Part shown: positions 23,964 to 43,961 of the stretch, piece after piece
Layout of the letters: every line of letters starts with the position of its first letter
How positions within the stretch are numbered: position 1 is the stretch's first letter
NCBI GenBank assembly: GCA_018303365.1
Contig: JAGVYI010000021.1
Coordinates: 1 to 54,838 of the forward strand
Source: Candidatus Woesearchaeota archaeon
GTDB lineage: Archaea; Nanobdellota; Nanobdellia; SCGC-AAA011-G17; JACPNG01
DNA length: 54,838 nucleotides
Direction of reading: 5' to 3'
Made by a program: the position numbers and the translations under genes
Notes under the pieces: model-generated
Databases searched by the model: none
Seen by the model: the letters and a program-made list of their open reading frames with translations, nothing else
What the model was told of the DNA's origin: nothing

Positions 23964-24458
23964 TTATGTTGTACAATATTCAAGGACCATCTCGAATCTT
24001 TCTTGTTGTCCACTTGAGGATCCTGTTATTATCCTTCTTTCTACGGTCTTTTCTCCAAGGCAGGAATTTCCTACCAATATGATATCTTGCGGGTTCTGAG
24101 TGTTCTTTATCAAAATCTGAAGGTTTACTTTTTGGTTTGTGTTTACCCTCCCTTTAATTATTTGCAATTCTTTTGCCAGATATTCTTGCCGCGCTTCTCC
24201 GTTTCCACAGGTGCTTTGCCTTGGGATTCCCCTTCTGATAATTTCTTCGATAGATACTGGACGCGCGGGAATTGTATCCGTTCTTTCGCAGGGTGTCGCT
24301 TTCAAGATTGCTGTAAGTAAACTTGCAGTATATGCACTTTCCCTTCCAATAGCTTTCTCCTGAGGCTTTGTTCGTAGTGTTACAAATAAGATTATTATGA
24401 AAATAAGCAGTACCACAATTACCAGAAGTCCAATGATCTCTGTCTGCCCCTTTTTCAT
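23964..24458 (-). CDS. type IV pilin-like protein with class III signal peptide (164 aa)
   Basis: MKKG|QTEIIGLLVIVVLLIFIIILFV: a short basic leader ending KG, Q at +1, E at +3, then a ~20-aa hydrophobic helix. 4-nt overlap with the upstream gene. Confidence 0.75.
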   Translation of the reverse strand: MKKGQTEIIGLLVIVVLLIFIIILFVTLRTKPQEKAIGRESAYTASLLTAILKATPCERTDTIPARPVSIEEIIRRGIPRQSTCGNGEARQEYLAKELQIIKGRVNTNQKVNLQILIKNTQNPQDIILVGNSCLGEKTVERRIITGSSSGQQERFEMVLEYCTT

Positions 24459-25045
24459 CTGTAGCTTTCTATAATAAGTTCTCCTATCCTATACTCATTT
24501 TTTCTGTCTTCTGCAGCATTTGGAAAATAGAGTGACACTGGTACTGATATTTTGTTTACTTCTGTTATTGTTGCCGGTCTGCTTTCATAGATTATCCAAG
24601 TATCACAGTTGTTCGGATATACCTCTTGGTTGTACTTTTCCTGGGTGCATTCCTGGTTTTCAACCTGCCCTTGTAGTTCTGGGTATACTTGCTTTACCAA
24701 AACCCTTTTTCTACCAAATATTGTTGCATAATACCCCTTTTCTTCTCCATCTATTACTTCTTTTGCTATGAGCAATTTTAATGTGTCAATACAATCCTCT
24801 CTTCTTACATTCTTGCTGCATTCAATTTCCGGCATGCCCTGAATTGCTCTGAGTTCCACTTCTGCTTTCTGACTTAATATTTCCCCACCTTTCTTTTGAA
24901 TGCTTTGTTTTAACACTCCAGTATAGAAAACGATTCCAACGACGATGAGCACAGTAACAATAAAAATGACCATAATCATCTCTATAAGCCCAATTTGACC
25001 TTTCTTAGAATACTTGGCCTTTCCCCTCACTTCTGAGTACCTCAT
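24455..25045 (-). CDS. type IV pilin-like protein with class III signal peptide (196 aa)
   Basis: ..KYSKKG|QIGLIEMIMVIFIVTVLIVVGIVF. 41-nt overlap with the upstream gene. Confidence 0.7.
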   Translation of the reverse strand: MRYSEVRGKAKYSKKGQIGLIEMIMVIFIVTVLIVVGIVFYTGVLKQSIQKKGGEILSQKAEVELRAIQGMPEIECSKNVRREDCIDTLKLLIAKEVIDGEEKGYYATIFGRKRVLVKQVYPELQGQVENQECTQEKYNQEVYPNNCDTWIIYESRPATITEVNKISVPVSLYFPNAAEDRKNEYRIGELIIESYR

Positions 25046-26069
25046 TAAGATTTTGTATTATCTCTTTCTGTTGAGCTATTTCCTGTAAGTCTGCCTGTGT
25101 TAGCTGCCTAACTTTTATCTTTTTATTTTCAAGGGTGGTTATTAACGTATGCAGGCTTTCCTTTATACGAAGATAGGTTGGATTTGGGCTTAATTGGTCT
25201 TGCATATCCTTTGCAAATAGTTTTTCAGCCCTTTTTTCGTATACTTTGGTTACCTTTTCCATTCTTTCGAATGCAGCCTCAAGAGAGCAGTCATACGACT
25301 TCTTATCTTTTGCAAATATAGACCCATAGAGCATTGCCTTTCCAAAAAAGACTGTTGTTTCCTGCCCTTCTTCTTTGTAGAAAGTCACAACCCCTGTGCA
25401 TTCGCTGTCTTCTCTGTTTCCCTGTTCGTCACACTTTTCTCCATCTGTTTGAATTTTGAGAACCTCTGCTGTTGGTGCTGGAGCAACTGTCGGTTCCTGA
25501 TTGATAAAAACATATTTTTTTACTTGTCCTGATTGTGGGGTATAGCTGTTTGTTTTTACGTTGAATATTTTTGGTATAAACTCAAAGTTATCACAGCATG
25601 GTTCTCCTTGTCTTTGGATTCCAACCAACTCTTCAGCTAGTCTTCCTGTTCCTTGAACAATGTATTCTGTCTGCCCATCTGCCAGAAAAAAGAAATTCAT
25701 TATCCTGTAAGGGTACTCCCAACTTACAGTCCATACCTTTAGTTTGTCCGCTTTTAATTCTGTGTTACTAAATATTGCTTCCTGGGTGCGTATTTGTGGT
25801 GAATTTTCTACACGCAGAACGCCGCATACTGGTTTGTTGACAGTAATTCCCTGTTTCGCAGCTAGTTGAATCTCCTTATTCGCGTTTGTTGCTACTTCGA
25901 GGGCCCTAAGATTATCTTCTAGCGCATTTACTGTCTGGATATTTCCTACCTCTTTAGAGATGTTTGATTGTCTTAGCGCTGACTGTACAAAGAAAGATAA
26001 AATGATTATCCCTGCAATTGCTACAAAAATATATTGAAATACCGGAGCGATACCTCTTTTTTCTTTCAT
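25005..26069 (-). CDS. large pilin-like protein with class III-type signal peptide (354 aa)
   Basis: MKEKRG|IAPVFQYIFVAIAGIIILSFFV. Globular Cys-containing head and a C-terminal helical region. Confidence 0.6.
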   Translation of the reverse strand: MKEKRGIAPVFQYIFVAIAGIIILSFFVQSALRQSNISKEVGNIQTVNALEDNLRALEVATNANKEIQLAAKQGITVNKPVCGVLRVENSPQIRTQEAIFSNTELKADKLKVWTVSWEYPYRIMNFFFLADGQTEYIVQGTGRLAEELVGIQRQGEPCCDNFEFIPKIFNVKTNSYTPQSGQVKKYVFINQEPTVAPAPTAEVLKIQTDGEKCDEQGNREDSECTGVVTFYKEEGQETTVFFGKAMLYGSIFAKDKKSYDCSLEAAFERMEKVTKVYEKRAEKLFAKDMQDQLSPNPTYLRIKESLHTLITTLENKKIKVRQLTQADLQEIAQQKEIIQNLNEVLRSEGKGQVF

Positions 26070-26076
26070 TATTCAT

Positions 26077-29000
26077 TTATTGTGCTGGTTGTACCTTAAT
26101 TGTTCTTTCGTTTCCAAACACATCCTGACACCTGACAGTGTACGGCTCTCCTGCCCAGTTTGCCTGATGCTCTTTGCCTTCGTCTATCATTGGTGTTCCT
26201 TCTCCAAACCTAAAATTATCTGTTGCTGCATATTCGCATATTGCATCTTCACTTGTTTGAATGTGTAAGATTTGCTTGTTATTTTCAAGATAAATTCCAG
26301 TAATTATTGGAGCGTCTAAGTCTACACGAACATTGACTGTTGTCTGACCGTCTGCCTCATTTCCTGCGTCATCTCTGCATTTTACATTGAATGCATACCT
26401 TCCTGTTTGAAGAGTTTCAAATGTTTGAGTATGGATGCTTTGTCCGGTATTCTTGAATGGGGCCATACTTTCAAAAATCGTATCTTCTCCACCATATCCA
26501 CAGATTGCCTGTCCGTTTCCTGACCCCCCTCCTGTCTCTACAGTTAAAGTTAGGTTGTTTACAAACAACGTTCCACTTGGGCTTATTTCTTTTATGGTTA
26601 GGGATAGTGTTCCTATGATCGTGAATTCAAATGCTTCTTCGTTTGTATTTCTCTGGTCTTCTGGAGCACTTGGCTTATCTTGGCACTTAAAGAAGAACTC
26701 ATTTTCGTCTTCTATAAGTCTTGTTAGTGTTGTTTGACATTCGTATAATCCGCGCAGACTTGGTGATGTTGCAAATGAGCTTCTTGCGCAGTTGAACTCT
26801 TCTTCGAGATCATTGTACGGTTTATCTGCTCGTGACCAGCGACATAGACTTGGTTCGTTTACATAAATACTTAGTGGAGCTTCCTCTGTTCCATGGGGTA
26901 TAAATGCTCCGTTCTGAATACTCGTCCTCTCGATTTTCGGTGCAGTGAGGTCTGGTCCTGGTTTTACCCTGAATTTTATAAAATAGTCTCTTTCATTTTT
27001 GTTTCCAGTGGCGTCTTGGCAGCGGATATAGATTGTATTTACCCCGCCATTTGTTATTCTTAATGCATCTTCTGCCACTAATTCACTTGTTATCCCTAAT
27101 GCAGTGGTGTGATTATAAGAGAATGCAGATGCTCCGAAGTATCTATTCATCATGTCTTCAAATCTTATTGAATGATTTGTATCGTACTTGCACTGTGCCG
27201 GCTCGTTTGTGTTGATGCCGATTGTTATCGGACTGAATGGCTCTATTCTTTCGTTTATTTGGTATCCTTTGTTCCCCTGCTCTGTTACTTCCCTTAAGGT
27301 TAATCCCCTTGCAAGGTCTTCTGGCGCAGGACTAATAATTGGGGAGTTCACATCATTCGGATTTAAGTTTACACAACGCTCTTCACTTGTTCCCTGATTG
27401 ATTAAGCCACAAAGTTGTCCCAAGGATTTACAACGATACTCTGAGCAGGGCAAGTTTCCCTCATTGCAGAGTTCACATTTGTTTCCTCCTGTTGGCGCTT
27501 GCCAGGCAGAGCATTGAACTGCATAAGTTACTTCTTTTACTTGTTCTGTTGCGGCATTGATGATGCTTGCTATTGATATTGCTATAAAGGCCGGTCCTAT
27601 GAATCCGATAGGATTTAGACCTACTCCTGCAAATGGATTAAAGAGTGCGCTGAACCCTCCTACTGGTGCTAATATAGCTGGTGATCCTCCCGCCACACTA
27701 CCTGTTACTGCTGTTGCTACAAGACCTCCCACCTGCTTTCCTGCAAATGCCGCAACAAGGGTTGTTGCTGTCAGTCCTCCAAACCCAATTGCTCCAGAAA
27801 CACCAAGTCTTCTTACAAATCCTGCTTTGGTATAATCTTCATCTGAAATTGTTGAGAGCGTATCGAAATCCCCGATATCTTCTCTTGTCAGGGCGTATCC
27901 GTGAAAGAAATTCCTTTCTTCTGAAGCTGTATTCCCATATCCATCTAAAGTTATGTCTCCTGCAATGTTGTAATATGCCCCACAATCTCCAAGGCTTTTA
28001 CAATAATTATTTCCTGCGACAACCCAGTCTTTTGTTATGCACTGGCAATTATTGACACATTCCCAATCATCCCCTGCAAATATTCTTGTAACTGCTCCTT
28101 TCTTCTTGAATGTGACTGTGCACTCTTTATTTCCAATATCACAAGCACTTTCTGCGTTTGTAGTGGGGGTTCTTTGGATTGCAGATGGAACTCCTTCTCT
28201 TTGGGACTGCTGGTTTGTATTCTGCTGCGTCTCTCCAGACCAGAATGCAAGGCCTGGCGGTACTTGTGGAACGCATACTCCTGCGTTTGCAGGTATGACT
28301 GCGTTTCCATCCTCATCAGTATTGGGTGTTGTTATAATCCCAGCTTCAAGCCAAGAGCAATCCCTTTGTGCGTTGTTTTCACAGCATTTTCTTGCACAAC
28401 ATGCAGTTTTTTCTGCACCTGAGAATTGGTCGCATTCTGAACCACATGTTTTTACATCATTGCATGTTTGGCATGTCTCCCACCTATTGTCCCTACACGC
28501 AGCTTCTACGTATTCCCCTCGTGCTTTGAAACTTTCCTGGGTTCCTAGGATGTCTTGTCCTAATACCCCTTGTACACAAATTTCTTCTCTAAAGTCGCGG
28601 CATGGTTCAATTATCTCTTCCCCATTTATACAAGTGTTTCTAAAGTGGCGTGAGCCGACGAGATCTTTTCCTTGTCCGACATCACCATCATATAAACACC
28701 AACTCTCTCCATTTTTCTTTGTCCCTCCACTACTTGGACTACTATCATCATCTAATGTGGTCTGGCAGTCTATGCTTTGACATATATATTCTCCAAAGGC
28801 GGGAGTTATGCTTCTTGGTGCCTTTTTGCACAGTGTTCCCTGGGCATAATTGCAGTTTCCACAAGAGGGGTCATTTACCCCCCCTTGACAGCTTCTCTCT
28901 TGCTGCAGGACAAATCCTCCATTGTAAGCGCGTTCTTTGTTTGCATCATATATATTTTCTGGATTTCCACAGGAATCAAACCAGTAAACATCTTCTTCAA

Positions 29001-29673
29001 AGCATCCTGTTCTTTGCTGGGGGGCACATTCAGTTCCTAGTTCCTGGTTACTACAAAGGGTATCTTTATGAAACCCCACCCTCACAGTTCTTGTAACATT
29101 GCCCCCTAGTTCTCCTTCTTGCTCCTGCGCATTGCACGTCTCTCTTGTAGTAAACTGACATGTTCCATCTGGTATTACACAGGCCCCTTTGTCTTGGCTT
29201 CTGCTTTTATCAATGCAGGCCTGCTCTGTTGTTATTGTTTCATCAAAACTTATTTCTGCATTTGGAAAGTTGCTTGCTTCCCGTCTGCATTGCGTCTGGG
29301 TTACAAAGAAACTTTCTGTTCCTACAATGCAGCATCCTCTGGTACACTCTGAAACCTGACACTCAGACTGCGGCCTCCACGTACCACCTTGGTTTTCGCA
29401 AGTTGCTTGCGGAGCGTTTTTGTAACATATCCCTTTTTGTGCATCCACGCAACACCCTATTTGGCAGTAGGATGTTTCTTCACAAGTTGTCGGGACTGCG
29501 AATTTTCCACTACTGGTATCGCAGTTGCTGATCTCTGTGTATACACAGGAGTCTCCGTTTAGTGTCTCTTGGCAACATGCTCTTTGCTGGGCGTAGGCTG
29601 CTACTTTTGGGGCTATTAAAAATAACCCCAAGAAAAGTAATATCATTACTAAGGTATGCACGCTTTCTTTCAT
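26077..29673 (-). CDS. giant Cys-rich surface protein, paralog A (1198 aa): signal peptide, Cys-rich domain, Gly/Ala hydrophobic segment, Cys knot, four two-Cys modules
   Basis: Signal peptide MKESVHTLVMILLFLGLFLIAPKVAAYA|QQ. About 51 Cys by hand count in residues 31-570. Clearly paralogous to 30487..33729. No named family recognised. Confidence 0.85.
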   Translation of the reverse strand: MKESVHTLVMILLFLGLFLIAPKVAAYAQQRACCQETLNGDSCVYTEISNCDTSSGKFAVPTTCEETSYCQIGCCVDAQKGICYKNAPQATCENQGGTWRPQSECQVSECTRGCCIVGTESFFVTQTQCRREASNFPNAEISFDETITTEQACIDKSRSQDKGACVIPDGTCQFTTRETCNAQEQEGELGGNVTRTVRVGFHKDTLCSNQELGTECAPQQRTGCFEEDVYWFDSCGNPENIYDANKERAYNGGFVLQQERSCQGGVNDPSCGNCNYAQGTLCKKAPRSITPAFGEYICQSIDCQTTLDDDSSPSSGGTKKNGESWCLYDGDVGQGKDLVGSRHFRNTCINGEEIIEPCRDFREEICVQGVLGQDILGTQESFKARGEYVEAACRDNRWETCQTCNDVKTCGSECDQFSGAEKTACCARKCCENNAQRDCSWLEAGIITTPNTDEDGNAVIPANAGVCVPQVPPGLAFWSGETQQNTNQQSQREGVPSAIQRTPTTNAESACDIGNKECTVTFKKKGAVTRIFAGDDWECVNNCQCITKDWVVAGNNYCKSLGDCGAYYNIAGDITLDGYGNTASEERNFFHGYALTREDIGDFDTLSTISDEDYTKAGFVRRLGVSGAIGFGGLTATTLVAAFAGKQVGGLVATAVTGSVAGGSPAILAPVGGFSALFNPFAGVGLNPIGFIGPAFIAISIASIINAATEQVKEVTYAVQCSAWQAPTGGNKCELCNEGNLPCSEYRCKSLGQLCGLINQGTSEERCVNLNPNDVNSPIISPAPEDLARGLTLREVTEQGNKGYQINERIEPFSPITIGINTNEPAQCKYDTNHSIRFEDMMNRYFGASAFSYNHTTALGITSELVAEDALRITNGGVNTIYIRCQDATGNKNERDYFIKFRVKPGPDLTAPKIERTSIQNGAFIPHGTEEAPLSIYVNEPSLCRWSRADKPYNDLEEEFNCARSSFATSPSLRGLYECQTTLTRLIEDENEFFFKCQDKPSAPEDQRNTNEEAFEFTIIGTLSLTIKEISPSGTLFVNNLTLTVETGGGSGNGQAICGYGGEDTIFESMAPFKNTGQSIHTQTFETLQTGRYAFNVKCRDDAGNEADGQTTVNVRVDLDAPIITGIYLENNKQILHIQTSEDAICEYAATDNFRFGEGTPMIDEGKEHQANWAGEPYTVRCQDVFGNERTIKVQPAQ

Positions 29674-30444
29674 TTATCTTGGTTCACCTTGGACTGCAAA
29701 TTGGAAGGTATATGGGCTTCCTTCTTTTTTTATTATGTATATCTTGTCTGGATAAGGCCTTTGTTTGTATATCTTTATTCTTCCTTTCTTGTCAATCATG
29801 TAGAATAAAGTCTCAAACTCTCCGTCTGTTGTCTCTGCATCAAGAATATCATTTGTTACCTCTAGTATCTCCCCCAGTGGCACTTCTAATTTTGTTTGTA
29901 CTTCTTCTAGGCTAACTCTGTTGTTACTTGCTACCAAAGTTATCGGAGCCTTTACTGTTACCTGCACTTCTTCTCTTCTAATTGTTGTGTTGATTGTCCT
30001 TTCATTCTCTTGGATATTATAAGGTCTTAGCTGTCCAAAACTTTGTATGTCAAGGCATCCTTCAAGGACATTACTTATTTCTGTCGCTATTTCTTTTTCT
30101 ATTTCCTGAGATGTTCTGAGACGGTTGTAACATGCTTCTGTCTGTGGTATGTTAAAACATAGATAACTTACTTTAGAATCATTCCATAATCTGAATGTAT
30201 CCTGGGCTGGCTGAAGGTATCCTCCTTGCTTTCCAATTTTGTTAACTATTTCTAATAGTCCATAATCATTCTTACCACGTTGCACACATTCTTCAATGTG
30301 ATTTCTTATTGAAACTAGTTCTCCTTGGAGGTTTTCTGTTGTTGTTGGTAGCAGTACGGTCCTCCTTGCAAAAAAGAATAGCGAGGCTAGGGCAATAAGA
30401 ATAATTCCCAATACGACAAAGATTGTTACCTGCCCCTTTTTCAT
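29674..30444 (-). CDS. type IV pilin-like protein with class III signal peptide (256 aa)
   Basis: MKKG|QVTIFVVLGIILIALASLFFF. Its stop codon directly abuts the ATG of the 1198-aa gene. Confidence 0.7.
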   Translation of the reverse strand: MKKGQVTIFVVLGIILIALASLFFFARRTVLLPTTTENLQGELVSIRNHIEECVQRGKNDYGLLEIVNKIGKQGGYLQPAQDTFRLWNDSKVSYLCFNIPQTEACYNRLRTSQEIEKEIATEISNVLEGCLDIQSFGQLRPYNIQENERTINTTIRREEVQVTVKAPITLVASNNRVSLEEVQTKLEVPLGEILEVTNDILDAETTDGEFETLFYMIDKKGRIKIYKQRPYPDKIYIIKKEGSPYTFQFAVQGEPR

Positions 30445-30466
30445 TTTCTTATTCCTTTTTACGGAT

Positions 30467-30474
30467 TATATAAA
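30467..30474 (-). promoter_or_regulatory. candidate internal TATA box (TTTATATA on minus strand)
   Basis: Lies 23-30 nt upstream of the ATG at 30444, in the 42-nt gap after the 1080-aa gene. The geometry fits a leaderless or short-leader start. Confidence 0.35.
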
Positions 30475-30486
30475 TATTTTGTCTTT

Positions 30487-33400
30487 TTACGGGTGGATTA
30501 CCATTTCTTGCATTCTGTTCTGTTTTGCATCTTCACAGATTAAGTGATACTCTGCTGCTTCTAGTCCTATTATAAATTGTTCCTGTTCTTGCCCTATTAT
30601 CGTACCTTCTTCATAACTAAACGACTTTGTGTCTATTTTGCAAGTGCCTTTTTCATTTAGAATTATTACTAGCTGACCCTGTTCTTTGTATATATTCTTT
30701 ATTTTCGGAGGGGTTCTATCTTGCTTTATTTCAAAACTTACCTCGCGTTGCGCTTGGTTCCCAATTTCATCTTCGCACCTTATCGGAATGTTATACTTGC
30801 CTTCAGGCAAGGTAAGTTGCTGAATGTGGACTGTGCTTTGTGTATTTTTCATGTTGACCCAATGTCCACCTTGTATTTGCATTTGACATATTGCTTTGCC
30901 ACCTTCCGCCCCACCTGTTGTTTGTATTTCAATGACAATCTCATTTTCAAGAAGTTCACCTTGTGGCTGGATTCCTGCGATTAGTAGTTCGCTTGTTTTT
31001 TCTATTCTTTTTTGTATTCCTTGGGTGTTTATATTTCCTTGCTGGTCCTGGCATCGGATGTAATATGTTGTTGTCTGGTCCAAGTTTATGTTTGTGCTAC
31101 ATATATATTTTCCATTACTTCTAGGGGTTTGATCGCAAAGAAGTGGGTCACCCATATCTTCAAAAGGGGCATCTACTTTTGCATACCTGCACACTGCTTG
31201 TTCGTTAACCTGAACTTCTAAGATTGTTTGGTCAACTCCGTTTGGAAGCTTGTCTGTTTCTCTTAGTAATTCTACTCTTGGAGGGCTTAGGTCTACAGTA
31301 CTTACTTGGTAGCTTATGCGATAATCTCTTTCATTTTTGTTTCCTGCTACGTCCTGGCATCGGATGTAAATATCTTTTTGTCCACCTGTACCTTCACTTT
31401 TTGTTAGTGAGTGGGTTGTTTTTAGACTTGACCCTTCTATTGTTGATATCATATCATCGAATCTTTGGTTTGGTTGGTTTGCATATTTACACTTAGCTAG
31501 CTCATCTGTTTCTATACCGAATTCAATTGTTTGGTGTATTTCTACTTCCGGGGTAATATCATATCCTACTTCCGTATTCCTTAGCTGAAATCCTTCTGTT
31601 AGTTTGCCTTGCAATGGTCTTATTACCGGGCTTTTTGTATCATTTCTTCCTGCGTTGAAACAAGACTGTCTTGTTGTGCCTTCATTTTCTGGGATGTACT
31701 GGCATGCTTGTCCTATGGACTTACAGCGATATTCTGTGCATTCTTTTCCATCTTGTCCGCATATATCACAATTTGCCCCTCCAGGCGGAGCTTGCCAAGG
31801 TTGGCATGTTACGCTATAGTGTTTTTCTTTTACTTTTGCAAATAGGTGGATTATAACAAAGAAAACCGCAACTGCGAGGACAATCCATGGTATTGCAGCC
31901 AGTATTGTTCCTGCTGCACTTGCTCCAGTAGCAGTGCTTCCTGCTGCAGCATTTGCTGCACTGATTGCATTTCCTGTTGCAAATTCTGCTATTCCAGTGT
32001 ATACCGGTGCTGCGGTTTCTGCTGCAGCTAAGCTTGAGAGTGTTACTGTTGCTGTGCCTGTTGTTGTGGCTGCGGTTCCTATTCCGATTGCTTTTCCAAG
32101 CAGGGCACTGATGCTAGGCAGGCCTATCTTTGGTCCAATAATTCCAAGTGTTGCGAATCCTAGTTGGATCCATGCTTTCGTAGGGACAGCATCTAGTCCT
32201 CGATATTGACTTGCATCAAAGTCTTCTGTGCTTAGTCCTCTTCCTGCGCTTTGCAGCTTTACAAATTCTTCTTGTTGTGGCGCTCTTGGTGGGTTTGTCT
32301 CCAGTCCTTCTTTTGTATAATCTCCGTCGACATTGTAATATGCTCCACAATCTCCAAGGGATATGCAATATGCATTTGCTTGGTCTATCCATGGCTGCCT
32401 TTCACATTCACAATTAGCTTCACATTTCCAGCTGGAAAGCAGTGTGCGTTTTACGTAATAAACTGTGCACTCTTGGCTTGCTTGACTACAAATTTCTTTA
32501 GCATCTTCTACATGGACCTGCCCTGTTGTTTTTGTTTCCCAGAACTTTAGACCAGGTGGTACTTGGGGTATACACCTTCCTTGGTTTTCGTTTCCAATCC
32601 AGCTACAGCTTTTCTGTGGATCTAGACAACACTCTCTATCCTCTTGAGACTTTTGCTGAAATTCCCTATTGTTCCTTGCATCTTTTGCTGTGTTGCATGT
32701 GGTTGCACATTCTTCCCAATTGTTTGTTACACACAATGCTTCATTATATGTTCCCCTTCCTGTTCCAGTTACTCTTGTTTGTACGCACGCCTGCTCACGA
32801 TAGTCTCTACAAGGTTCAATTACTTCTTCTCCGTTTACACAAAGTCTTCTAAAATGGCGTGAGCCAACGAGGTCTGTGCCACTTCCAGTGATTCCTTCAT
32901 ATTCACACCAGCTTTCTCCATTCTTTCTTAGTCCTCCATCGCCTTCTGTTGCAGGGCTGTTGTATGTTTGTAGGCAGTCAATGCTCTTACATACAAACTG
33001 CCCGTTTTCCTCGCCACATGTTAATCCTTGGTCATAACTGCACTCTTGAATTATGTCTTCTTTGTTATTACACGAATCGAACCAGTATATATCTCCTTCA
33101 AAACATCTTTTGTGATCTTTTGGTCTACATGTACAGGACTCAACTCTGCTACAATGCTGGTTCTGAAAGAAGTCTCCTTCTTGTTGTATACAATCCCCCC
33201 TTTTTTCTATGGTACACACGCCTTCTTTTTCACAACATCCTCCTTCTTCTTGCTGACAGAAACCAGCACATTCCTGTTCACTTAGGGTTTCCCTAAACTC
33301 TGAGTTTGCCCTCCCAAATGTTGCGGCTTGCCCAATACATTCCAGATTGGTTTCGATGCTGCATTGGTTTTCAATAATACAACATCCTTGCCTACATTCT

Positions 33401-33729
33401 TGGGTGTTACAATCCGCTCTTGGATCAAATATCCCCCCTTGATTTTTACAGGTTGCTTTTGGTGTGTTTGCTTGGCAGTTTCCTTCATTATTGCGGCAAC
33501 AGCCTACTTGGCAGAAATCAGTCTGAGCGCAGTTTAATCCTTGTACACTCCTGTAGTCTGGGTTACATTGTTCCTGACCTGTTTGTATGCAGGTTTCTCC
33601 TACGATGGTCCTTTCGCAACAGACTGTTTGTTTGGCATATGCCTGTTCTGGATTGTATACAGCGAATATTGTTAGAATGAGAATTATTATTTCTAAACAG
33701 GCTTTTACCTTTTGACCTCTTTGTTGCAT
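30487..33729 (-). CDS. giant Cys-rich surface protein, paralog B (1080 aa), same architecture as paralog A
   Basis: Signal peptide ..CLEIIILILTIFAVYNPEQAYA|KQ. Motifs shared with paralog A include CFEGDIYWFDSC, KNGESWC..DLVGSRHFR..C.NGEE.IEPCRD, PQVPPGL.FW, SLGDCGAYYN and IYIRCQD..GNKNERDY. Confidence 0.85.
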   Translation of the reverse strand: MQQRGQKVKACLEIIILILTIFAVYNPEQAYAKQTVCCERTIVGETCIQTGQEQCNPDYRSVQGLNCAQTDFCQVGCCRNNEGNCQANTPKATCKNQGGIFDPRADCNTQECRQGCCIIENQCSIETNLECIGQAATFGRANSEFRETLSEQECAGFCQQEEGGCCEKEGVCTIEKRGDCIQQEGDFFQNQHCSRVESCTCRPKDHKRCFEGDIYWFDSCNNKEDIIQECSYDQGLTCGEENGQFVCKSIDCLQTYNSPATEGDGGLRKNGESWCEYEGITGSGTDLVGSRHFRRLCVNGEEVIEPCRDYREQACVQTRVTGTGRGTYNEALCVTNNWEECATTCNTAKDARNNREFQQKSQEDRECCLDPQKSCSWIGNENQGRCIPQVPPGLKFWETKTTGQVHVEDAKEICSQASQECTVYYVKRTLLSSWKCEANCECERQPWIDQANAYCISLGDCGAYYNVDGDYTKEGLETNPPRAPQQEEFVKLQSAGRGLSTEDFDASQYRGLDAVPTKAWIQLGFATLGIIGPKIGLPSISALLGKAIGIGTAATTTGTATVTLSSLAAAETAAPVYTGIAEFATGNAISAANAAAGSTATGASAAGTILAAIPWIVLAVAVFFVIIHLFAKVKEKHYSVTCQPWQAPPGGANCDICGQDGKECTEYRCKSIGQACQYIPENEGTTRQSCFNAGRNDTKSPVIRPLQGKLTEGFQLRNTEVGYDITPEVEIHQTIEFGIETDELAKCKYANQPNQRFDDMISTIEGSSLKTTHSLTKSEGTGGQKDIYIRCQDVAGNKNERDYRISYQVSTVDLSPPRVELLRETDKLPNGVDQTILEVQVNEQAVCRYAKVDAPFEDMGDPLLCDQTPRSNGKYICSTNINLDQTTTYYIRCQDQQGNINTQGIQKRIEKTSELLIAGIQPQGELLENEIVIEIQTTGGAEGGKAICQMQIQGGHWVNMKNTQSTVHIQQLTLPEGKYNIPIRCEDEIGNQAQREVSFEIKQDRTPPKIKNIYKEQGQLVIILNEKGTCKIDTKSFSYEEGTIIGQEQEQFIIGLEAAEYHLICEDAKQNRMQEMVIHP

Positions 33730-36771: not shown

Positions 36772-37240
36772 TTCCCCCTATTGTGATAATGTCTCCTATC
36801 GTCATCTCATCTTGCTTCTTCTTCTGGACCCTTTTGGTTTCTTCTTCTACTTCTTTTTGGAGTATTATATTTAAGTTTTGTTCGAGTTTTTTTGTTAGTT
36901 CAATAGATGGCTCTATTTGATTGTTTTCTATTTTTTGGATTAGCGACTCTTTTTGTGCCATTCTTGTTGCCAACTCTCTTTGTGTCAACCCTTTTATTTC
37001 CCGCGCTTTTCTTACTCTTTCCCCGATATTCTCGACAAGAACTACTGTATTCTTATCTCTTTTTGGTGGTCTAGAAATGTTCCTTTGCTTTACAAATGCT
37101 TTTTGAGCTGGCTTTATTACTCTTCCATAGCCGCTACATTCTTTGCATGTTTGGAGTGTCGTACCTTCTATTTTCACTTGCGCGAGCTCATCTTCTCTAC
37201 CACACAGCTCGCAGCTGCCCATTTTATTGTAATTTCTCAT
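36704..37240 (-). CDS. mbf1: multiprotein bridging factor 1 (aMBF1): Zn ribbon plus XRE-type HTH
   Basis: CELCG..CKECSGYG, then RVRKAREIKGLTQRELATRMAQKESLIQKIENN. Overlaps the methyltransferase ORF by 68 nt. Confidence 0.85.
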   Translation of the reverse strand: MRNYNKMGSCELCGREDELAQVKIEGTTLQTCKECSGYGRVIKPAQKAFVKQRNISRPPKRDKNTVVLVENIGERVRKAREIKGLTQRELATRMAQKESLIQKIENNQIEPSIELTKKLEQNLNIILQKEVEEETKRVQKKKQDEMTIGDIITIGGNGKNNKKISGSRINKASHLRES

Positions 37241-37273
37241 AAACTATTTAAACCTTTCTTCAGAGGGTTTTCT

Positions 37274-38668
37274 ATGCGAAAAGACCTACTCTTTCTAAGC
37301 ATTATTTTTGGACTTTTTGTAACATTTCGTATTATTCATATTTTAACTTATTTCCACTTCATCTTGTGGGACGAGGCAGTCTATCTTTCAATTGCCAAGT
37401 ATTTTTTTTCAGGCGGTCAATATGGTTTGTTTGAAACTATCCGACCTTTGGGACTTCCACTTTTACTGAGCCTCGGCCTTCATCTTCCTTTTGACCTTGT
37501 TTTATTCTCTGACATTATTATAATCCTTTTCTCTTTAGGTACACTCTTTGTTGTCTATCTTCTTGGCAAAGACCTTTTTTCCCCAGGTGTTGGCGTGCTT
37601 TCTGCATTACTCCTTTCTTTTCATCCTATATTTTTTTCAAACAGTCTTCGTATACTAACGGGGATTCCTTCTGTCTTTTTCTCGCTTCTTGCCGTTTACT
37701 TTTTTATACGTCACTCTTATACCTTGTGTGGGGTGTTCTCTTTTTTTGCTTTCTTTTTTCGCTATCCTCATGGGCTTTTGGTCCTTGTTTTTGGCTTTTC
37801 TCTTCTCTCTTTCTTTCTCAAAGACAAGGACTGGAAATATTTTATTTCCTCTTCTATTCGTTTGTTCTTGCCCTTTTTTATACTCCTAACTTCTTTCGCT
37901 GTTTTGTTTTCTCTTTTTTTTGATAATTTCTTTCTATCTTTTTTCAGTGCTGCATCACATCAAAATAACCCATTTTACACTGTTGTTGGATTTTGGAGAA
38001 ATCTCTTTTATTATCCTGGGGTAATTTTCTCTGGCTCTCTTGTTATGCTTTTTTCTGCCTTAGGCATTATCTCCTCTAGTTTGCGTTACCGTCTTACTCC
38101 CATCTACTTTTATCTTTTTTTCTATCTTTCCTACTTCACCTTGGTTGTTAATAAACAGCCTCGTTTTGCTATTTTGTTTCTTCCATTTTTTGCCCTATTC
38201 GCTTCTTTTGGGGTTTTTTCTGCTTACTCTTTCCTTTCTTCGCGTCGCGTCAAAACCGTATTCCTTATTTTTTCTATTTTCTTTCTGCTAAGTTCAACTC
38301 TTTCTTTCTATTCCTCTTTTGTCTCTTACTCGTCTTTTCCTAAGTCTGCACCACCCATTGTTTCTGAATATTATTCTTATTTTCCAGACTACCTCCCATC
38401 TCCTATTCTTACCAGTGATCCTGTTCCTGGGGCCTATCGCAATGTTCTTTTCATACCTTATTATAGTTCTTTGGACACTGCTTTTCAGACTGTTAACTCT
38501 TCTACCCCTTTTGTGGCCGGTGCTTACTTTAGTCGTGCACCTTTTCCTTGCTCTTCCCCTTATTGCAATGGCCAACTAGAAGAGATTTTTTCTCTACTTT
38601 CTCTAAAATTCGATCTTGCTTTTGCAGGCTCCTATGAGGAAGAGAAATATATCTTTATTCGGCCTTAA
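37274..38668 (+). CDS. GT-C fold glycosyltransferase (PMT_2/ArnT-like family 39)
   Basis: Start taken at the internal ATG, MRKDLLFLSIIFGLF. First-loop motif HFILWDEAVYLSIAKYF. Many TMs. The track's upstream 107 codons run antisense through mbf1. Confidence 0.65.
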   Translation: MRKDLLFLSIIFGLFVTFRIIHILTYFHFILWDEAVYLSIAKYFFSGGQYGLFETIRPLGLPLLLSLGLHLPFDLVLFSDIIIILFSLGTLFVVYLLGKDLFSPGVGVLSALLLSFHPIFFSNSLRILTGIPSVFFSLLAVYFFIRHSYTLCGVFSFFAFFFRYPHGLLVLVFGFSLLSFFLKDKDWKYFISSSIRLFLPFFILLTSFAVLFSLFFDNFFLSFFSAASHQNNPFYTVVGFWRNLFYYPGVIFSGSLVMLFSALGIISSSLRYRLTPIYFYLFFYLSYFTLVVNKQPRFAILFLPFFALFASFGVFSAYSFLSSRRVKTVFLIFSIFFLLSSTLSFYSSFVSYSSFPKSAPPIVSEYYSYFPDYLPSPILTSDPVPGAYRNVLFIPYYSSLDTAFQTVNSSTPFVAGAYFSRAPFPCSSPYCNGQLEEIFSLLSLKFDLAFAGSYEEEKYIFIRP

Positions 38669-39317
38669 ACTTCCTTTCAATCTGTTTTTTTAACTCTGCA
38701 CTTCCAATGAATCCTTCTTTTATTACTTCATCATTTACCACTACCGTCGTGGGGTGGGTAATGTTATACCCTTGTTTTAGAGTGTCTACTAATGGTTCAT
38801 CATGGTAATCTTTATCTATCGAGAGCACAATGAGGTTGTCTTCATATTCCTTTTCAAGGTTTGTCAACACATACCCCTGTTTTATGCTCTCTTGGTTATC
38901 AATCGTGTAGAAAAACAAAATATAAACAATATCTTCATCACAGTGTTTTTGGAGGTCTTGGATTAGCATCATAAACTGTACTTCAAGTATAAAATACTTC
39001 CTTTTCAAATAGTCAAAATCTTTTTCATAACTCACCCTCTTTTTTGAATATTCACCTAATTGTTGTCCAATCTCTACAGTTGCATATTTCATCTTGTTGA
39101 TTCTTGTACTGAGAATTTCACATGCATTCTGTTTGAAATCTCTTAGAAGCCTTTCTTGTAGCAGGTAGCTTTCAGTCTCCAGTTCATTTCGCTGGAGGTT
39201 TTTGAGTACTTCTTTTGAGCGCAGGTTGTCAATACCTACCCCTAAACCAAGCCCTCCTATAAAGATGAGGGATGCAATTGCGAGACTTACTAGAATGTTC
39301 TTTTTGGGACTTACCAT
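38655..39317 (-). CDS. hypothetical membrane-anchored protein
   Basis: Start taken at MVSPKKNILVSLAIASLIFIGGLGLGV (single TM), then a coiled coil and an alpha/beta domain. No family recognised. Confidence 0.5.
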   Translation of the reverse strand: MVSPKKNILVSLAIASLIFIGGLGLGVGIDNLRSKEVLKNLQRNELETESYLLQERLLRDFKQNACEILSTRINKMKYATVEIGQQLGEYSKKRVSYEKDFDYLKRKYFILEVQFMMLIQDLQKHCDEDIVYILFFYTIDNQESIKQGYVLTNLEKEYEDNLIVLSIDKDYHDEPLVDTLKQGYNITHPTTVVVNDEVIKEGFIGSAELKKQIERKFKAE

Positions 39318-40537
39318 TTGTTTTTGCTTCTCCTTGCTTCTTTTGTTACTGCAGTTATCCAATGAAGAGTTCTGACTATGGGATATACTGTCATATAAAT
39401 TACCAATATGCCTAGATTTGTCCATTTTTCATTTACTAGTTTATGCGCCTCATTGTACATATAAAGAGAGAGCAGAATTGTTATCGCTATCGGAAACATT
39501 ATTTTTATATTTAGACCAAGAAAAACTTCTTTGAGAGAGGGTATATCTATAAGACGGATTATGTTTACCCCCAATACTCCTACCTTTACCGAAGTAGTGT
39601 GTATTTTTTCTATTAATTCAATTCCTATCAACATTGCCATAGTGATTGTCACAATGATTGTTAATACATTCACAGGATACTGAAACATCCCTACCATTCC
39701 GTGCTTTTTATTAAAGAGGAATTGCTTGTACTTTACCGTATTGTAGATAAACCCTCTAAACCACCTTACTCTCTGATTCCAGAGTGTTCTAAAACTGTTG
39801 GGTACCTTTGTAAATGTTATGCATTCAGGAGCAATTTTTATTTTATGCCCTTTTGCAATTAGGTGTAGCGCTACTTCAAGGTCTTCTGTAAGATTGTTTT
39901 CATCAAACCCCCCAATTTCTCTTAATCTATGGGCCCTATACAGACTTAATGCCCCGGGTGTGTTGTGAAGAGTATTTATTTTTGCCATGAGTTTTCTTGA
40001 AAATGTTGATATGATGTACTCAAGGCGCTGGACTTTTTCATAGATATTTTTTGTTTCATCTACTTTAATTGCGCTAATTACTGCTGCTACTTTTTCATCT
40101 TCAAAGTAGGTAAGCATGTTATCTATAGACCCGAATGTTACTGTAGAATCTGCATCAACACATCCAATTATTTCCCCTGTTGCATTATTTACGCCCATAT
40201 TTAGGGCGGCTGCTTTTGTTCCACCATTCTTCTCCCTATTTAATAACTTGATTCTTGCACCCTCTTTGATGCATTCTTCTATTATTTCTTTTGTTTTATC
40301 GGTTGATCCATCATTGACTGCAATAATCTCTAACTTATCTTGCGGGTAGCCTGTGTTTTGGAGGGCCTGTAGGGTTTCTTTGATAACCATTTCTTCATTA
40401 TATGCTGGGACTATTATACTTACTTTCGGTTTCCACGGCCCTTTTTTTTCTTCCACCTCTGCGTAGAGGACTCTAATCCAAAATATCCCGAGAAATAGGC
40501 TTAGGAAAGAAACAAACCATACAGCAATTTCTATCAT
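39311..40537 (-). CDS. processive family-2 glycosyltransferase (PgaC/NodC/chitin-synthase-like)
   Basis: SIIVPAYNEE, AVNDGSTDKT, GGTKAAALNMG, CVDADS, TEDLEV and the QRVRWFRG (QxxRW) motif. N- and C-terminal TMs. Confidence 0.85.
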   Translation of the reverse strand: MIEIAVWFVSFLSLFLGIFWIRVLYAEVEEKKGPWKPKVSIIVPAYNEEMVIKETLQALQNTGYPQDKLEIIAVNDGSTDKTKEIIEECIKEGARIKLLNREKNGGTKAAALNMGVNNATGEIIGCVDADSTVTFGSIDNMLTYFEDEKVAAVISAIKVDETKNIYEKVQRLEYIISTFSRKLMAKINTLHNTPGALSLYRAHRLREIGGFDENNLTEDLEVALHLIAKGHKIKIAPECITFTKVPNSFRTLWNQRVRWFRGFIYNTVKYKQFLFNKKHGMVGMFQYPVNVLTIIVTITMAMLIGIELIEKIHTTSVKVGVLGVNIIRLIDIPSLKEVFLGLNIKIMFPIAITILLSLYMYNEAHKLVNEKWTNLGILVIYMTVYPIVRTLHWITAVTKEARRSKNKW

Positions 40538-41988
40538 CTTTCAATTTCCAAGATCTGTGTATTCTCACTTTCATAAATCTTTTTAAAATCTTTTCCGTAG
40601 GTCAATAGGAAGAGAAGACCATCCTCTTCGTTTTTCCACAGTTTCTTTTTCATGTTAGCATCAATCCAAATGTGAGTAATGCCATATTTTTCTATGACCT
40701 TATCGGCTTCTTTAATCTTTCTTGTTGCTGTTAAGTTTTTGAAATCTATGTTTCTTTCTTTTATGTCCCTAACCAGTTCAGTGTTTGAGTCCCAAACATT
40801 TTTCCTTTCCGCTATTGCGCTAATCCAATTTCCCTTTGTGATGTCTGAGAAGACAACTGCACTTTGATTACTTTGCTCCTTGAGAAACTCTAGGCTTTCT
40901 TTTATCTCATCTGTAGGTTGTGCTACTGTTAACGCTTTTACATGGGAAAATGAAGAGAATAGAAGGCCTGTTATTAAAACAAGGAGCGTCAAATTCTCTA
41001 TAAGCCTTATCTCCCAGCGTATTTTTAATATTTCTTCTATGCCCAGCGCTGCAAGTGCTGCAATTAGGGGGGTAAGATAAAAAAGGGTATCTTTGATGAA
41101 AATAGAAGTGATACTGAATACGATTATAGTTATATATATTATGCTGTGTTTGTACTTTTCTTTCCATAAATATACGAACCCGAATATTGCAAGAATTATC
41201 GCAAATATATTTAGTCCGAAGATCCCTCCCATATCTGCTAGCATGGTTTGTAGGGTTTGCACAAACCTTATTGGTGTATCTTGAATTATATGTGATGTTC
41301 TTGCAAGTGCCATTTGTATAACTATAACCGTACCGATAATAACCCCCGCTAGCCAAAGTTTTTTCTCTTTTTTTAGAAGCACATATATTGCAATGGATAG
41401 GAGACTGACGATTGCCGGTATGATTCCAAACGCAGCTGTTGCTATCAGCGCAAGATTCGCTCGTCTTGTATTTTCTTTTAGCATACTATCCATTGAAATC
41501 AGTAGCAGGAGAAGTGGAAATGCATTTTTGTTTACCGTTACAAAAAGATAAGTAAATGCAGGAGATAATACAAAGATTATCGTTGCAAGGAAAGCAATTG
41601 TTCGTGTTCTTTTTAGTGTTTTCACTATTGAAAAGAAAGTTAATGTTGTTAGTGCCCCTAACACTATCATCAGAAGATTTGCGATAATTCCTACCTGTAC
41701 GCTTCCATTCAAGCTTAACCACCTTATTATCTGTGGCAAGATATTAAATGAGTGAATTCTTCCACTAAAGCTCAGTTGGTCTTCCATTGTGTATTGAGCC
41801 TTTGCTTGTCTGAGGAAAAGATAGGTTTCATCCCCGATTGGTGTTGTATGGGGTCTGAGAATTAGCACCATCCCTAAGATTCCTACTGTCAAGGCTATAA
41901 GAATGACCGCGATTATCTTATCTACACTTGACGCGGTAAACTGTTGCTTTATCAGTTTCCTTGATTTTTCTGAAACAGTCCTGATCAT
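40534..41988 (-). CDS. polytopic membrane protein with C-terminal soluble domain (possible GT-C/oligosaccharyltransferase-like)
   Basis: More than 10 predicted TMs. First-loop GDETYLFLRQAKA is reminiscent of the DxD..YY..R loop of STT3/AglB-like enzymes. No WWDYG motif seen. Confidence 0.45.
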   Translation of the reverse strand: MIRTVSEKSRKLIKQQFTASSVDKIIAVILIALTVGILGMVLILRPHTTPIGDETYLFLRQAKAQYTMEDQLSFSGRIHSFNILPQIIRWLSLNGSVQVGIIANLLMIVLGALTTLTFFSIVKTLKRTRTIAFLATIIFVLSPAFTYLFVTVNKNAFPLLLLLISMDSMLKENTRRANLALIATAAFGIIPAIVSLLSIAIYVLLKKEKKLWLAGVIIGTVIVIQMALARTSHIIQDTPIRFVQTLQTMLADMGGIFGLNIFAIILAIFGFVYLWKEKYKHSIIYITIIVFSITSIFIKDTLFYLTPLIAALAALGIEEILKIRWEIRLIENLTLLVLITGLLFSSFSHVKALTVAQPTDEIKESLEFLKEQSNQSAVVFSDITKGNWISAIAERKNVWDSNTELVRDIKERNIDFKNLTATRKIKEADKVIEKYGITHIWIDANMKKKLWKNEEDGLLFLLTYGKDFKKIYESENTQILEIER

Positions 41989-43390: not shown

Positions 43391-43961
43391 CTTCCTGTTC
43401 TTTTTCTGCTTCCTTTCTATCCTCTAACTCTTCAGGAGCAGATCTTATCTCTTCTGGTATTTGGCTTTCTATTTTATCCTTTAGTTCTTCCTCTACAACA
43501 TCAAAATAATCGAAGAACTTTGATGTCAACTTCAAGAGTCTTGTCCTTCCCTTTTTCTCCGATGTTATAAATTTATTCTCCCTTAATGTTTTTATGTGAT
43601 CATATGCCGAGTTTCCCCTTATTTCAATTATTCCTGATTGCATTACTGGTTGTTTGTAAGCAATGATCGCCAATGTTTGGGTTGTAGGTCTATCGAATTC
43701 TGAATCTGATAGAAGGCTGGTTGTGAGGTAGCTGTATTCCTTTTTTATGTTGAGCTTCCATTTTCCATTTTCTTCTTGAATCTCGAGTGCAGTGTCCTTT
43801 CTTTCATAATTTTTTTTTAGTTCTTCTAGAGTGGTCTTGACATATCCCAGTGAGCCAATATGGCAGAGTCTTGCAACTTCTTCTATTTCCATGAATCTTC
43901 CGGTTGTGAACAGAATAGCCTCTACCTTTTTTATCTCCGATTCCATTTTATTATATTGCAA
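43377..43961 (-). CDS. scpB: segregation and condensation protein B (ScpB)
   Basis: VEAILFTTGRFMEIEEVARL..TLAIIAYKQPVMQSGIIEIRG indicates two wHTH domains. The track start is TTG; an in-frame ATG lies at 43946. Confidence 0.8.
   Translation of the reverse strand: MQYNKMESEIKKVEAILFTTGRFMEIEEVARLCHIGSLGYVKTTLEELKKNYERKDTALEIQEENGKWKLNIKKEYSYLTTSLLSDSEFDRPTTQTLAIIAYKQPVMQSGIIEIRGNSAYDHIKTLRENKFITSEKKGRTRLLKLTSKFFDYFDVVEEELKDKIESQIPEEIRSAPEELEDRKEAEKEQEDEKL

Follow-up and report, generated by a model that had tools for sequence, protein, structure and literature searches.

Two giant cysteine-rich proteins and four predicted pilin-like partners in a conserved gene cassette of Woesearchaeota and their relatives: a possible type-IV-filament-like surface complex

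The DNA studied here, a stretch of 54,838 nucleotides from a Candidatus Woesearchaeota archaeon (GenBank assembly GCA_018303365.1, contig JAGVYI010000021.1, positions 1-54,838; the whole stretch is referred to as the window), encodes two giant, cysteine-rich paralogous proteins, A and B, in a conserved cassette together with four small proteins that are predicted to carry class III (prepilin-type) signal peptides. We tentatively favor a reading in which A and B might serve as large non-pilin components of a surface complex resembling type IV filaments, a counterpart by analogy, and not by homology, of PilY1 with its minor pilins; we regard this as plausible without holding it firmly. Woesearchaeota and Pacearchaeota rank with the most widely distributed archaea yet to be cultivated. 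The module reported here comprises seven genes (two giants, four pilin-like proteins and usually a surface-layer (S-layer) protein), occurs in the large majority of the related loci sampled, and resides in the core genome. An initial annotation of this region had drawn attention to the two giants, whose ORFs we recovered exactly as described, both on the minus strand; it had not noted the conserved cassette with its pilin-like partners, which is the most telling part of the context. The six cassette genes of the window are, in gene order:

30487-33729, minus strand: giant B, 1080 aa, an open reading frame (ORF) recognized as a paralog of A by BLASTP
29674-30444, minus strand: p256, 256 aa, predicted class III signal peptide (MKKG/QVTIFVVLGIILIAL…), 4 Cys, preceding the giant gene
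26077-29673, minus strand: giant A, 1198 aa, whole gene, an ORF with 642 homologs, all of them unnamed
25005-26069, minus strand: p354, 354 aa, predicted pilin-like (…KRG/IAPVFQYIFVAIAGIIILSFF…), 6 Cys
24455-25045, minus strand: p196, 196 aa, predicted pilin-like (…SKKG/QIGLIEMIMV…), 4 invariant Cys, invariant Glu in the hydrophobic helix
23964-24458, minus strand: p164, 164 aa, predicted pilin-like (MKKG/QTEIIGLLVIVVLL…), 4 Cys, last gene of the cassette

Our assignment of the four small proteins to the prepilin type rests on their N-termini, in which a basic residue is followed by a Gly, usually a Gln, and a hydrophobic helix of about 20 residues, a pattern seen with 34-35 orthologs per family. 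The p256 family begins with [KR][KR]GQxTxFxIxG in 34 orthologs, with Q5, F9 and G13 invariant; the N-terminus KKG-x-x-x-x-FKYIF is kept by the p354 orthologs (63 ORFs); and Q5 and G10 are invariant, and E7 nearly so, in the alignment of p164. The Gln stands directly behind the Gly (KG/Q motif) in p256, p196 and p164, an arrangement that is typical of EppA substrates. For p196, a weak match to the N-terminus of the NCBIfam ComGC pilin model was found (E 6e-4; 19.9 bits against a cut-off of 75). Neither p256, whose homologs are all unnamed, nor p354 has a match in Pfam or the PDB, and profiles of all four families retrieved nothing among PDB sequences.

The genes are closely spaced. In the window, B, p256, A and p354 are separated by gaps of 42, 0 and 7 nt, the first 41 nt of p196 lie within p354, and the first 4 nt of p164 lie within the end of p196, at its stop. 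The order B, p256, A, p354, p196, p164 recurs on one strand in two other genomes (loci L001 and L002), and the six genes are orthologous between the genomes. Hidden Markov models (HMMs) of the six families were mapped on 81 loci, and gene order was counted in the 30 loci of at least 19 kb (the long loci). In 26 of these 30, p354, p196 and p164 follow the giants in this order; most of the 26 have the plain arrangement B-p256-A, the others contain extra or split giants. The initial annotation had raised the question of whether the copy number of the giants differs among related genomes; 20 loci carry two giants, and 4 carry three or four. In Pacearchaeota-type loci the unit of p256 and a giant is repeated, and in eight of them (L067, L069, L071, L074, L077, L078, L080 and L081) two separate genes stand in place of the last giant, the break falling at a site equivalent to residues 581-715 of A. 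The first of these genes encodes a head protein of about 515-620 aa with a signal peptide and the Cys-rich half, and without any anchor; the second encodes a protein of about 680-890 aa with a signal peptide of its own, the variable region, the hydrophobic segments, the knot and the immunoglobulin (Ig)-like domains described below. As it would be secreted without an anchor, the split head has to attach to a partner.

Of the 30 long loci, 24 have a gene for an S-layer protein (PF05124) directly after the cassette on the same strand (positions 16075-18255 in L001, 16368-19073 in L002, and 22 further loci). Those adjacent S-layer proteins that are full-length and were examined possess a signal peptide and lack a hydrophobic anchor. 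The window itself contains no S-layer homolog anywhere in its 54.8 kb, and rpl3 follows p164 instead; linkage to an S-layer gene is consequently not obligatory. An additional pilin-like gene (about 160-180 aa) lies between giant A and p354 in L002 (13676-14167) and in the 'bb' loci L023, L034, L041 and L048; it is missing from the window.

The paralogy of the two giants, proposed on the basis of shared motifs, is borne out by a single end-to-end BLASTP alignment (32% identity, E 2e-179) and by a global alignment with 37.6% identity over 1043 aligned pairs; every pair of island motifs quoted in the initial annotation was recovered in the A/B alignment. In comparison with the A-type and B-type orthologs from L001 and L002, A shares 36-41% identity with the A-type and B shares 29-31% with the B-type proteins, while A and B share 28-32%. 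Given how these values compare, the duplication is, on the evidence of sequence, an old one. With B-type orthologs in both L001 and L002, and 69 B-type ORFs across the loci, each copy has its own group of orthologs in other genomes, which rules out that either is a pseudogene or a recent duplicate. The divergence between A and B is saturated, and the ratio of nonsynonymous to synonymous substitution rates (dN/dS) between them would be uninformative.

The family to which the giants belong is very large, unnamed and, judged from the sequences retrieved, confined to metagenome-assembled genomes (MAGs) of Woesearchaeota, Pacearchaeota and Nanoarchaeia. Searches with A returned 642 unnamed proteins from a database clustered at 90% identity, and those homologs of A that carry a name are each a 'hypothetical protein' of Woesearchaeota, Nanoarchaeota or Nanoarchaeia. 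With B as the query, 3,222 clusters (50% identity) were matched at E<=1e-3 and 1,190 at E<=1e-30. At least 434 loci with a relative are present in the GTDB species representatives (one genome per species); the titles of the listed loci are nearly all those of Woesearchaeota, Pacearchaeota and Nanoarchaeia MAGs, with a few given only as 'archaeon' or 'bacterium'. A viral origin was considered and ruled out, since tblastn found no match among 50,697 phage records and a Foldseek search against BFVD remained equally empty. Many lineage-specific protein families of DPANN archaea are predicted to be membrane-bound or extracellular, and the 51 families of Module 98 are widespread in Pacearchaeota and Woesearchaeota, mostly absent elsewhere and mostly without assigned function (Castelle et al., 2021, PMC8204110). 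The cassette families fit this description and probably belong to families of the Module 98 type. The giant family highlighted in the same study (the murein transglycosylase fam00969) is a different one; Pfam searches of A, B and 36 family members gave no match to SLT or transglycosylase domains. No earlier description of the giants was found in open-access texts and bioRxiv preprints; the head domain of the giants and the cassette as a unit thus appear to be undescribed, whereas their stalk is ordinary.

Conserved islands in an otherwise diverged background had been described as near-identical stretches and as fitting paralogs under different selection, for example on ligand-binding surfaces. 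Neither part of this view held up. Between A and B the islands reach just 67-75% identity in protein and 63-75% in DNA, and, far from being peculiar to the two paralogs, they coincide with motifs that are near-invariant across the whole family in an alignment of 121 sequences: VYWFDSCGNxENIY, NGESWC, VGSRHYR, EPCKDFREEIC, VPPGLKFW, GDCGAYYN, CxPWxAPxGGxxC, CSEYRCKSLGQ and RCxDxxGNxNxRDY. Because the islands match these family-wide motifs, they are best read, from the alignments, as the product of old purifying selection on a common core. Gene conversion as their source is ruled out by the modest DNA identity and by a sharing of codons barely over background (at identical residues, the same codon is used in 56% of cases within islands vs 46% outside).

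The architecture of the giants is as follows, with residue numbers and boundaries for B being approximate:

29590-29673, minus strand: A residues 1-28, predicted Sec-type signal peptide (…APKVAAYA/QQ), read from the sequence with a hydrophobic window at residues 1-29; the cleavage site is a prediction
29119-29583, minus strand: A residues 31-185, four tandem 'CC units' of about 40 aa, recognized by CC doublets, AlphaFold2 (AF2) modeling, hhalign and joint loss of Cys residues
27934-29076, minus strand: A residues 200-580, Cys-rich core, modeled by AF2 with a predicted local distance difference test (pLDDT) score of 93-97 over most of its length, no known fold
27529-27933, minus strand: A residues 581-715, variable region of high Gly, Ala, Ser and Thr content, including glycine-zipper-like hydrophobic segments seen in hydropathy plots; the presumed membrane anchor
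27364-27528, minus strand: A residues 716-770, knot with 7 invariant Cys (99-100% conserved; pLDDT 85-93)
26080-27351, minus strand: A residues 775-1198, four tandem Ig-like beta-sandwich domains (AF2 pLDDT 90.3, Foldseek, Big_13)
B residues 1-32, minus strand: predicted signal peptide (…EQAYA/KQ), read from the sequence
32305-33633, minus strand: B residues 33-475, Cys-rich N-terminal half
31810-32304, minus strand: B residues 476-640, Gly/Ala-rich region with a strong hydrophobic segment
30490-31809, minus strand: B residues 641-1080, 7-Cys knot and four Ig-like domains

Sites of the AxA type equivalent to AYA/QQ of A and AYA/KQ of B are present in the orthologs of both proteins. With predicted Sec-type signal peptides on both giants and homologs that are archaeal, the proposal that these are archaeal proteins destined for secretion is supported. 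The N-terminal half, referred to here as the head, opens with the CC units, each of which is modeled by AF2 as a beta-hairpin plus a short helix and follows the motif GCC-x5-6-C/F-x-[YF]-T-x3-C. Three tandem units of about 38 aa had been proposed; three conserved CC doublets are indeed found in A (residues 33/34, 74/75 and 114/115), although their spacing is about 40 aa and a fourth, degenerate unit follows the third. By hhalign, units 3 and 4 are clearly related (probability 87%), and the remaining pairs match only weakly. Most of the invariant non-Cys residues of the N-terminal half are located in the core that comes next, in the motifs WFDSCGNxEN, GESWC, DxVGSRHxR, DFREE, VPPGLxFW and GDCGAYYN; the invariant acidic and polar residues among them suggest a conserved binding site, a prediction drawn from the alignment.

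We propose that the head constitutes a new domain of about 540 residues with about 50 Cys, one that folds confidently in silico (mean pLDDT of 87.3 for residues 25-600 of A in the AF2 model) and that is without a relative in sequence or structure. No match to the head was found in Pfam for any of 36 family members, nor in NCBIfam, nor among PDB sequences with either the single protein or the 121-sequence profile. Foldseek, whose sensitivity is limited for a multi-module, disulfide-rich model such as this one, gave a best E value of 1.3 against 350,542 PDB chains and of 0.64 against BFVD. EGF, laminin-EGF, furin-like, hevein/CBM18, FN2 and kringle domains yielded no Pfam match at E<=1 in A and B, nor any in the 36 members, and the Foldseek matches of the head to EGF-containing entries all had E>1. 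Known Cys-rich repeats and metal clusters are ruled out as an explanation of the head by the empty Pfam, NCBIfam and PDB searches. Hence, the domain architecture, initially described as unrecognized, is so in its front half, which lacks any Pfam, PDB or Foldseek relative; its back half consists of four ordinary Ig-like domains.

A contains 68 and B contains 67 Cys residues, and an initial hand count of about 51 Cys in residues 31-570 of A turned out to be exact. In the 121-sequence alignment, 59 of the 68 Cys of A are at least 80% conserved. Across the family the counts step by two, the N-terminal half having mostly 41, 43, 45, 47, 49 or 51 Cys and the back half 17, 19, 21 or 23. An analysis of joint losses in 224 aligned homologs identified defined pairs: 33-64, 34-51, 74-105, 75-92 and 83-110 in the CC units, so that units 1 and 2 have the same deduced connectivity (1-5, 2-4, 3-6); 216-235, 358-393 and 518-545, together with a quartet formed by residues 401, 431, 439 and 467, in the core; and 1058-1099 and 1146-1182 in the Ig-like domains. 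The conservation of these residues, their change in steps of two and their loss in pairs indicate that the Cys residues behave as disulfides, and this applies to both halves; disulfide or metal cross-linking had been proposed from Cys density in the first place. The map of joint losses also provides a testable disulfide pattern. From the disulfide behavior of both halves it can be argued that each of them should fold outside the cytoplasm.

The fold of the back half is clearly Ig-like in the structural models. The AF2 model of this part of A has 529 PDB matches at E<=1e-3 in Foldseek, all of them to strings of Ig-like domains (e.g., titin, DSCAM, PTPδ, GhpA and the HPI S-layer protein), with a probability of 1.0 and E values down to 7e-12. 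Among the 36 members, Pfam matches are to Big_13 (29), Y_Y_Y (20), DUF4625 (19) and Big_3_3 (10), the best Big_13 match having an E value of 1e-8. In A and B themselves the Ig-type HMM scores amount to 20-26 bits and fall below the gathering cut-offs of 26.6-27 bits; in B, residues 952-1012 match Big_3_3 and Big_13 weakly. Each Ig-like domain of A ends in C-x-D-x-x-G-N and harbors an invariant Cys pair (828/885; 944/997, plus 962/979; 1058/1099; 1146/1182). The likeness to Ig-string proteins such as surface adhesins, the 'grappling hook' GhpA and the HPI S-layer protein is limited to the stalk, and the invariant Cys pair in every domain sets the giants apart from the bacterial Ig strings. In front of the Ig-like domains of A, the Cys residues of the knot are C721, C733-x2-C736, C743, C748, C755 and C767.

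Between the two halves lies the least conserved part of the giants, a mid region of 111-395 aa across the family with a combined Gly, Ala, Ser and Thr content of 0.32-0.46. B contains a stretch at about residues 600-637 with a Kyte-Doolittle (KD) index of 3.0, and the segment that precedes the back half is a strong transmembrane (TM) candidate in B-type proteins (median KD 2.54; 34 of 37 reach at least 1.6). In many A-type proteins it is weak (median KD 1.68), and 55 of 147 have no segment that reaches 1.6. The observed/expected ratio of N-x-S/T sequons is 0.34 in the head, 0.15 in the mid region and 0.82 in the back half, and 0.36 and 0.13 in p256 and p354, compared with 1.12 in S-layer proteins and 1.26 in other ORFs. 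This depletion may reflect selection against N-glycosylation of interfaces. So low a ratio in the mid region speaks against a loop in the cytoplasm at this site, and a simple hairpin of two TM segments joined by such a loop is weakened both by this value and by the weak hydrophobicity of the A-type proteins. With a short helical hairpin, or with a re-entrant insertion, the data on topology would, so we infer, agree with one another. That both halves lie outside is argued, in terms of sequence, by the disulfide behavior, by the matches to extracellular Ig families and by the split genes.

Taken together, these data lend themselves to the following working model for the filament-like complex, which would be specific to DPANN archaea of the Woesearchaeales/Pacearchaeales type. 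The sequence features, family size, synteny, predicted folds and disulfide-like behavior of the Cys residues are shown by the analysis; export, topology, complex formation and the role in attachment are the parts that we infer. Each giant would be exported by the Sec system and its signal peptide removed. Both halves would then fold extracellularly as disulfide-stapled modules, the front half into a rigid Cys-rich head made up of the CC units and the new-fold core, and the back half into a stalk consisting of the Cys knot and the four Ig-like domains. The central Gly-rich hydrophobic segment, strong in B-type and weak in many A-type proteins, would retain the giant in the membrane. There the giants, probably as an A/B hetero-complex, would cooperate with the co-translated p256, p354, p196 and p164 proteins in a short pilus-like or pseudopilus-like assembly that may present the heads through the S-layer for attachment.

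The closest counterparts to such an arrangement are PilY1 with the four minor pilins FimU, PilV, PilW and PilX, which prime and tip bacterial type IVa pili, and GspH-K of type II secretion: here as there, large Sec-exported non-pilin proteins and four small prepilin-type proteins are encoded in one operon. The cassette resembles the PilY1/minor-pilin operons in its fixed gene order, in its translational coupling and in a Glu within the helix of two of the four small families, and four class III genes are interleaved with the giants, in keeping with the several minor-pilin-type genes that characterize a PilY1 operon. It differs from the PilY1 systems in that the giants share no similarity in sequence or fold with PilY1 and lack the vWA, beta-propeller and DUF2341 domains, in that they possess a central hydrophobic segment, in that no ATPase or platform gene is nearby, and in its archaeal host. 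Among archaea, the clade-1/Epd-type loci for type IV pili in Methanococci and Thermococci are described as encoding a pair of large adhesin-like (PilY-like) proteins alongside S-layer-like proteins and a minimum of five minor pilins with class III signal peptides (Makarova et al., 2016, PMC4858521), and System 1 type-IV-filament (TFF) machinery has been reported in some DPANN archaea (bioRxiv 10.64898/2026.04.22.720090). Two large proteins, small proteins with class III signal peptides and, in most of the long loci, an S-layer gene are common to the cassette and the clade-1/Epd loci. In contrast, the large proteins of the latter are defined by DUF2341, which the giants lack, the cassette is detached from genes for the ATPase, TadC and EppA, and its small families have no arCOG or Pfam pilin match. 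Because DUF2341, vWA domains and propellers are missing and the assembly machinery is unlinked, the likeness to PilY1 and to the clade-1 loci is one of functional analogy, as far as such comparisons go, and not of membership.

Several observations weigh against a filament-like complex. A TFF ATPase, a platform protein and a prepilin peptidase were not recognized in the window, the flanks of the cassette in L001 and L002 contain no Pfam family of TFF machinery, and a crude scan for the Walker-A motif GxxGSGKTT within ±10 kb of the 81 loci returned no hit. The curated pilin models of Pfam and NCBIfam match the four small proteins below threshold only (15.6 vs 26.6 bits for T4SS_pilin). DUF2341 and the PilY1 domains had no Pfam match at E<=1 in A and B or at E<=0.1 in the 36 members, and B-type giants have a strong membrane segment, while PilY1-type tip proteins are devoid of one. 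A single stop-transfer topology would place the Ig half in the cytoplasm. With 40-57% identity across sampled homologs, the giants are unusually conserved for adhesins, which fits a structural role in the envelope better than host-specific adhesion; their location among housekeeping genes (PCNA, TFS, rpl3) likewise favors such a role. The odd number of Cys residues in each half of 145 of 175 members might suggest a disulfide between the halves; such a bond is unsupported, as about 20 sequences have lost the odd Cys of the N-terminal half (C172) and still keep every Cys of the C-terminal half that might have been its partner.

The main rival is an S-layer tether or pillar, a proposal by analogy that we consider possible, if rather doubtful. 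The giants and their pilin-like membrane feet would hold the anchorless S-layer to the membrane and determine how wide the pseudo-periplasm is, a role comparable to that of SlaB for SlaA. In this arrangement, the gap would be bridged by the Ig stalk, with the Cys-rich head attached to the S-layer protein at its conserved termini. The same-strand PF05124 gene behind the cassette in most long loci and the missing hydrophobic anchor of its full-length products examined point in this direction, as do the core-genome location, high conservation and usual two copies of the giants, the length of four Ig-like domains (roughly that of a stalk, by our estimate), and the scarcity of sequons in the head and in p256 and p354, which fits buried protein-protein interfaces. 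In the Sulfolobales SlaA/SlaB pair, too, an anchored beta-sandwich protein is encoded beside an anchorless canopy S-layer protein. SlaB is a small protein with a C-terminal TM segment and a coiled coil, and it has no Cys-rich head. The giants, in contrast, carry their hydrophobic segment in the center, their models contain no long helix, they come as two proteins with four pilin-like partners, and no solved S-layer anchor was found to resemble them in sequence or fold. A tether leaves the need for four distinct pilin-type proteins unexplained, and its genetic linkage to the S-layer is broken in the window, where rpl3 takes the place of the S-layer gene.

A type I receptor-like arrangement is an unlikely alternative. 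Here, the head and the variable region would be outside, a single stop-transfer TM segment would follow, and the knot and the Ig-like domains would lie in the cytoplasm, where the CxxC…C…C cluster would bind a metal, so that binding outside is coupled to the inside. The single strong hydrophobic segment immediately before the back half of B-type proteins, the CxxC-x6-C-x4-C cluster that follows that segment, and the sequon ratios, depleted in the head and mid region and nearly neutral in the back half, would all agree with this topology, and the split 'C genes' have their own Sec-like signal peptide upstream of the segment. However, the back-half Cys counts step by two, residues 1058/1099 and 1146/1182 are lost together in the manner of disulfides, and the Ig-like domains match the extracellular bacterial families Big_13, Y_Y_Y, Big_3_3 and DUF4625. 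Moreover, most giants have a second, glycine-zipper-like hydrophobic segment further upstream, which would bring the back half outside again, and the anchorless split heads require an external docking partner.

Similarly improbable, in our estimation, is an extracellular enzyme or lectin, with a catalytic or a Ca2+/glycan-binding site, built in the new-fold core from the invariant Asp, Glu, Ser, His, Arg and Asn residues, that would act on glycans of the envelope or of a host, the Ig-like domains being mere spacers. It would account for the many polar and acidic invariant positions that cluster within short motifs (WFDSCGNxEN, GESWC, DxVGSRHxR, DFREE, GDCGAYYN) and for a conservation far above the level usual for adhesins, and the window contains genes for glycosylation a few kb upstream of the cassette. 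Against it stand the failure to find any similarity, in sequence or fold, to enzyme or lectin families, the retention of the motifs in both diverged paralogs, and the obligate link to the pilin-like proteins, for which it offers no explanation.

Quite improbable is a host-engaging machine of Woesearchaeales and Pacearchaeales in which a pilin-like base presents the disulfide-stapled head of new fold and the glycine-rich segment inserts, like a fusion peptide, into the membrane of a partner and opens a cytoplasmic contact; if true, this would be the long-sought device for host attachment by DPANN archaea. Least of all do we expect a device for insertion into or fusion with the host membrane, in which the Gly/Ala-rich stretch would act like a viral-type fusion peptide and help to form cytoplasmic bridges between DPANN archaea and their hosts: the glycine-zipper-like runs adjoining a disulfide-rich ectodomain, the high Gly, Ala, Ser and Thr content, the many A-type proteins that lack a strong segment, the seemingly external exposure of the mid region deduced from its sequon depletion, the separability of head and stalk into two polypeptides and the episymbiotic lifestyle of the lineage (PMC8204110) are compatible with it, yet the PDB and BFVD yielded no structural match to fusexins or to fusogens of classes I to III, heptad repeats and coiled coils are absent from the models, the mid region is, unlike fusion peptides, the least conserved part, and the idea is pure analogy. 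Should the cassette encode either the pilus-like organelle that we favor or an S-layer tether, its products would become targets for cryo-electron tomography, proteomics, enrichment antibodies and structural work.

The window belongs to the core genome of a DPANN archaeon. The cassette has the rpl3/rpl4 operon and, further on, SecY on its downstream side; upstream are PCNA and an ORF that corresponds by position to TFS in L001 and L002, followed at greater distance by a methyltransferase, glycosyltransferases, ScpB, an intein-containing aRF1 and two aminoacyl-tRNA synthetases. An envelope-glycosylation neighborhood (36953-43390), 3-10 kb upstream of the cassette, comprises a PMT_2-like GT-C glycosyltransferase on the plus strand, a GT2 enzyme, and a pair of unannotated ORFs (about 485-490 aa each) that overlap, one with a weak match to chlor_Arch_YYY. 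In the aRF1/eRF1 protein (491 aa; 43951-45426, minus strand), the intein (Intein_splicing, PT-HINT; residues about 197-308) is situated between the eRF1 domains. Downstream past SecY, a 491-aa ORF (8162-9637, minus strand) encodes a fused PriS-PriL primase in which both subunits were matched. Two further ORFs, one of 837 aa (5671-8184, plus strand) and one of 380 aa (3764-4906, plus strand), had no Pfam and no significant NCBIfam match. At the left end of the window, a transposase fragment (63-590, minus strand) with weak Mutator, IS66 and IS240 matches adjoins an AAA_14/DUF4143 ATPase (811-2289, plus strand), and the GC content there falls to 0.33-0.34. A single tRNA gene (Phe, 47902-47975) is present in the 54.8 kb. 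Between positions 8000 and 48000, nearly all long ORFs are on the minus strand, and both the GC skew and the AT skew are persistently negative.

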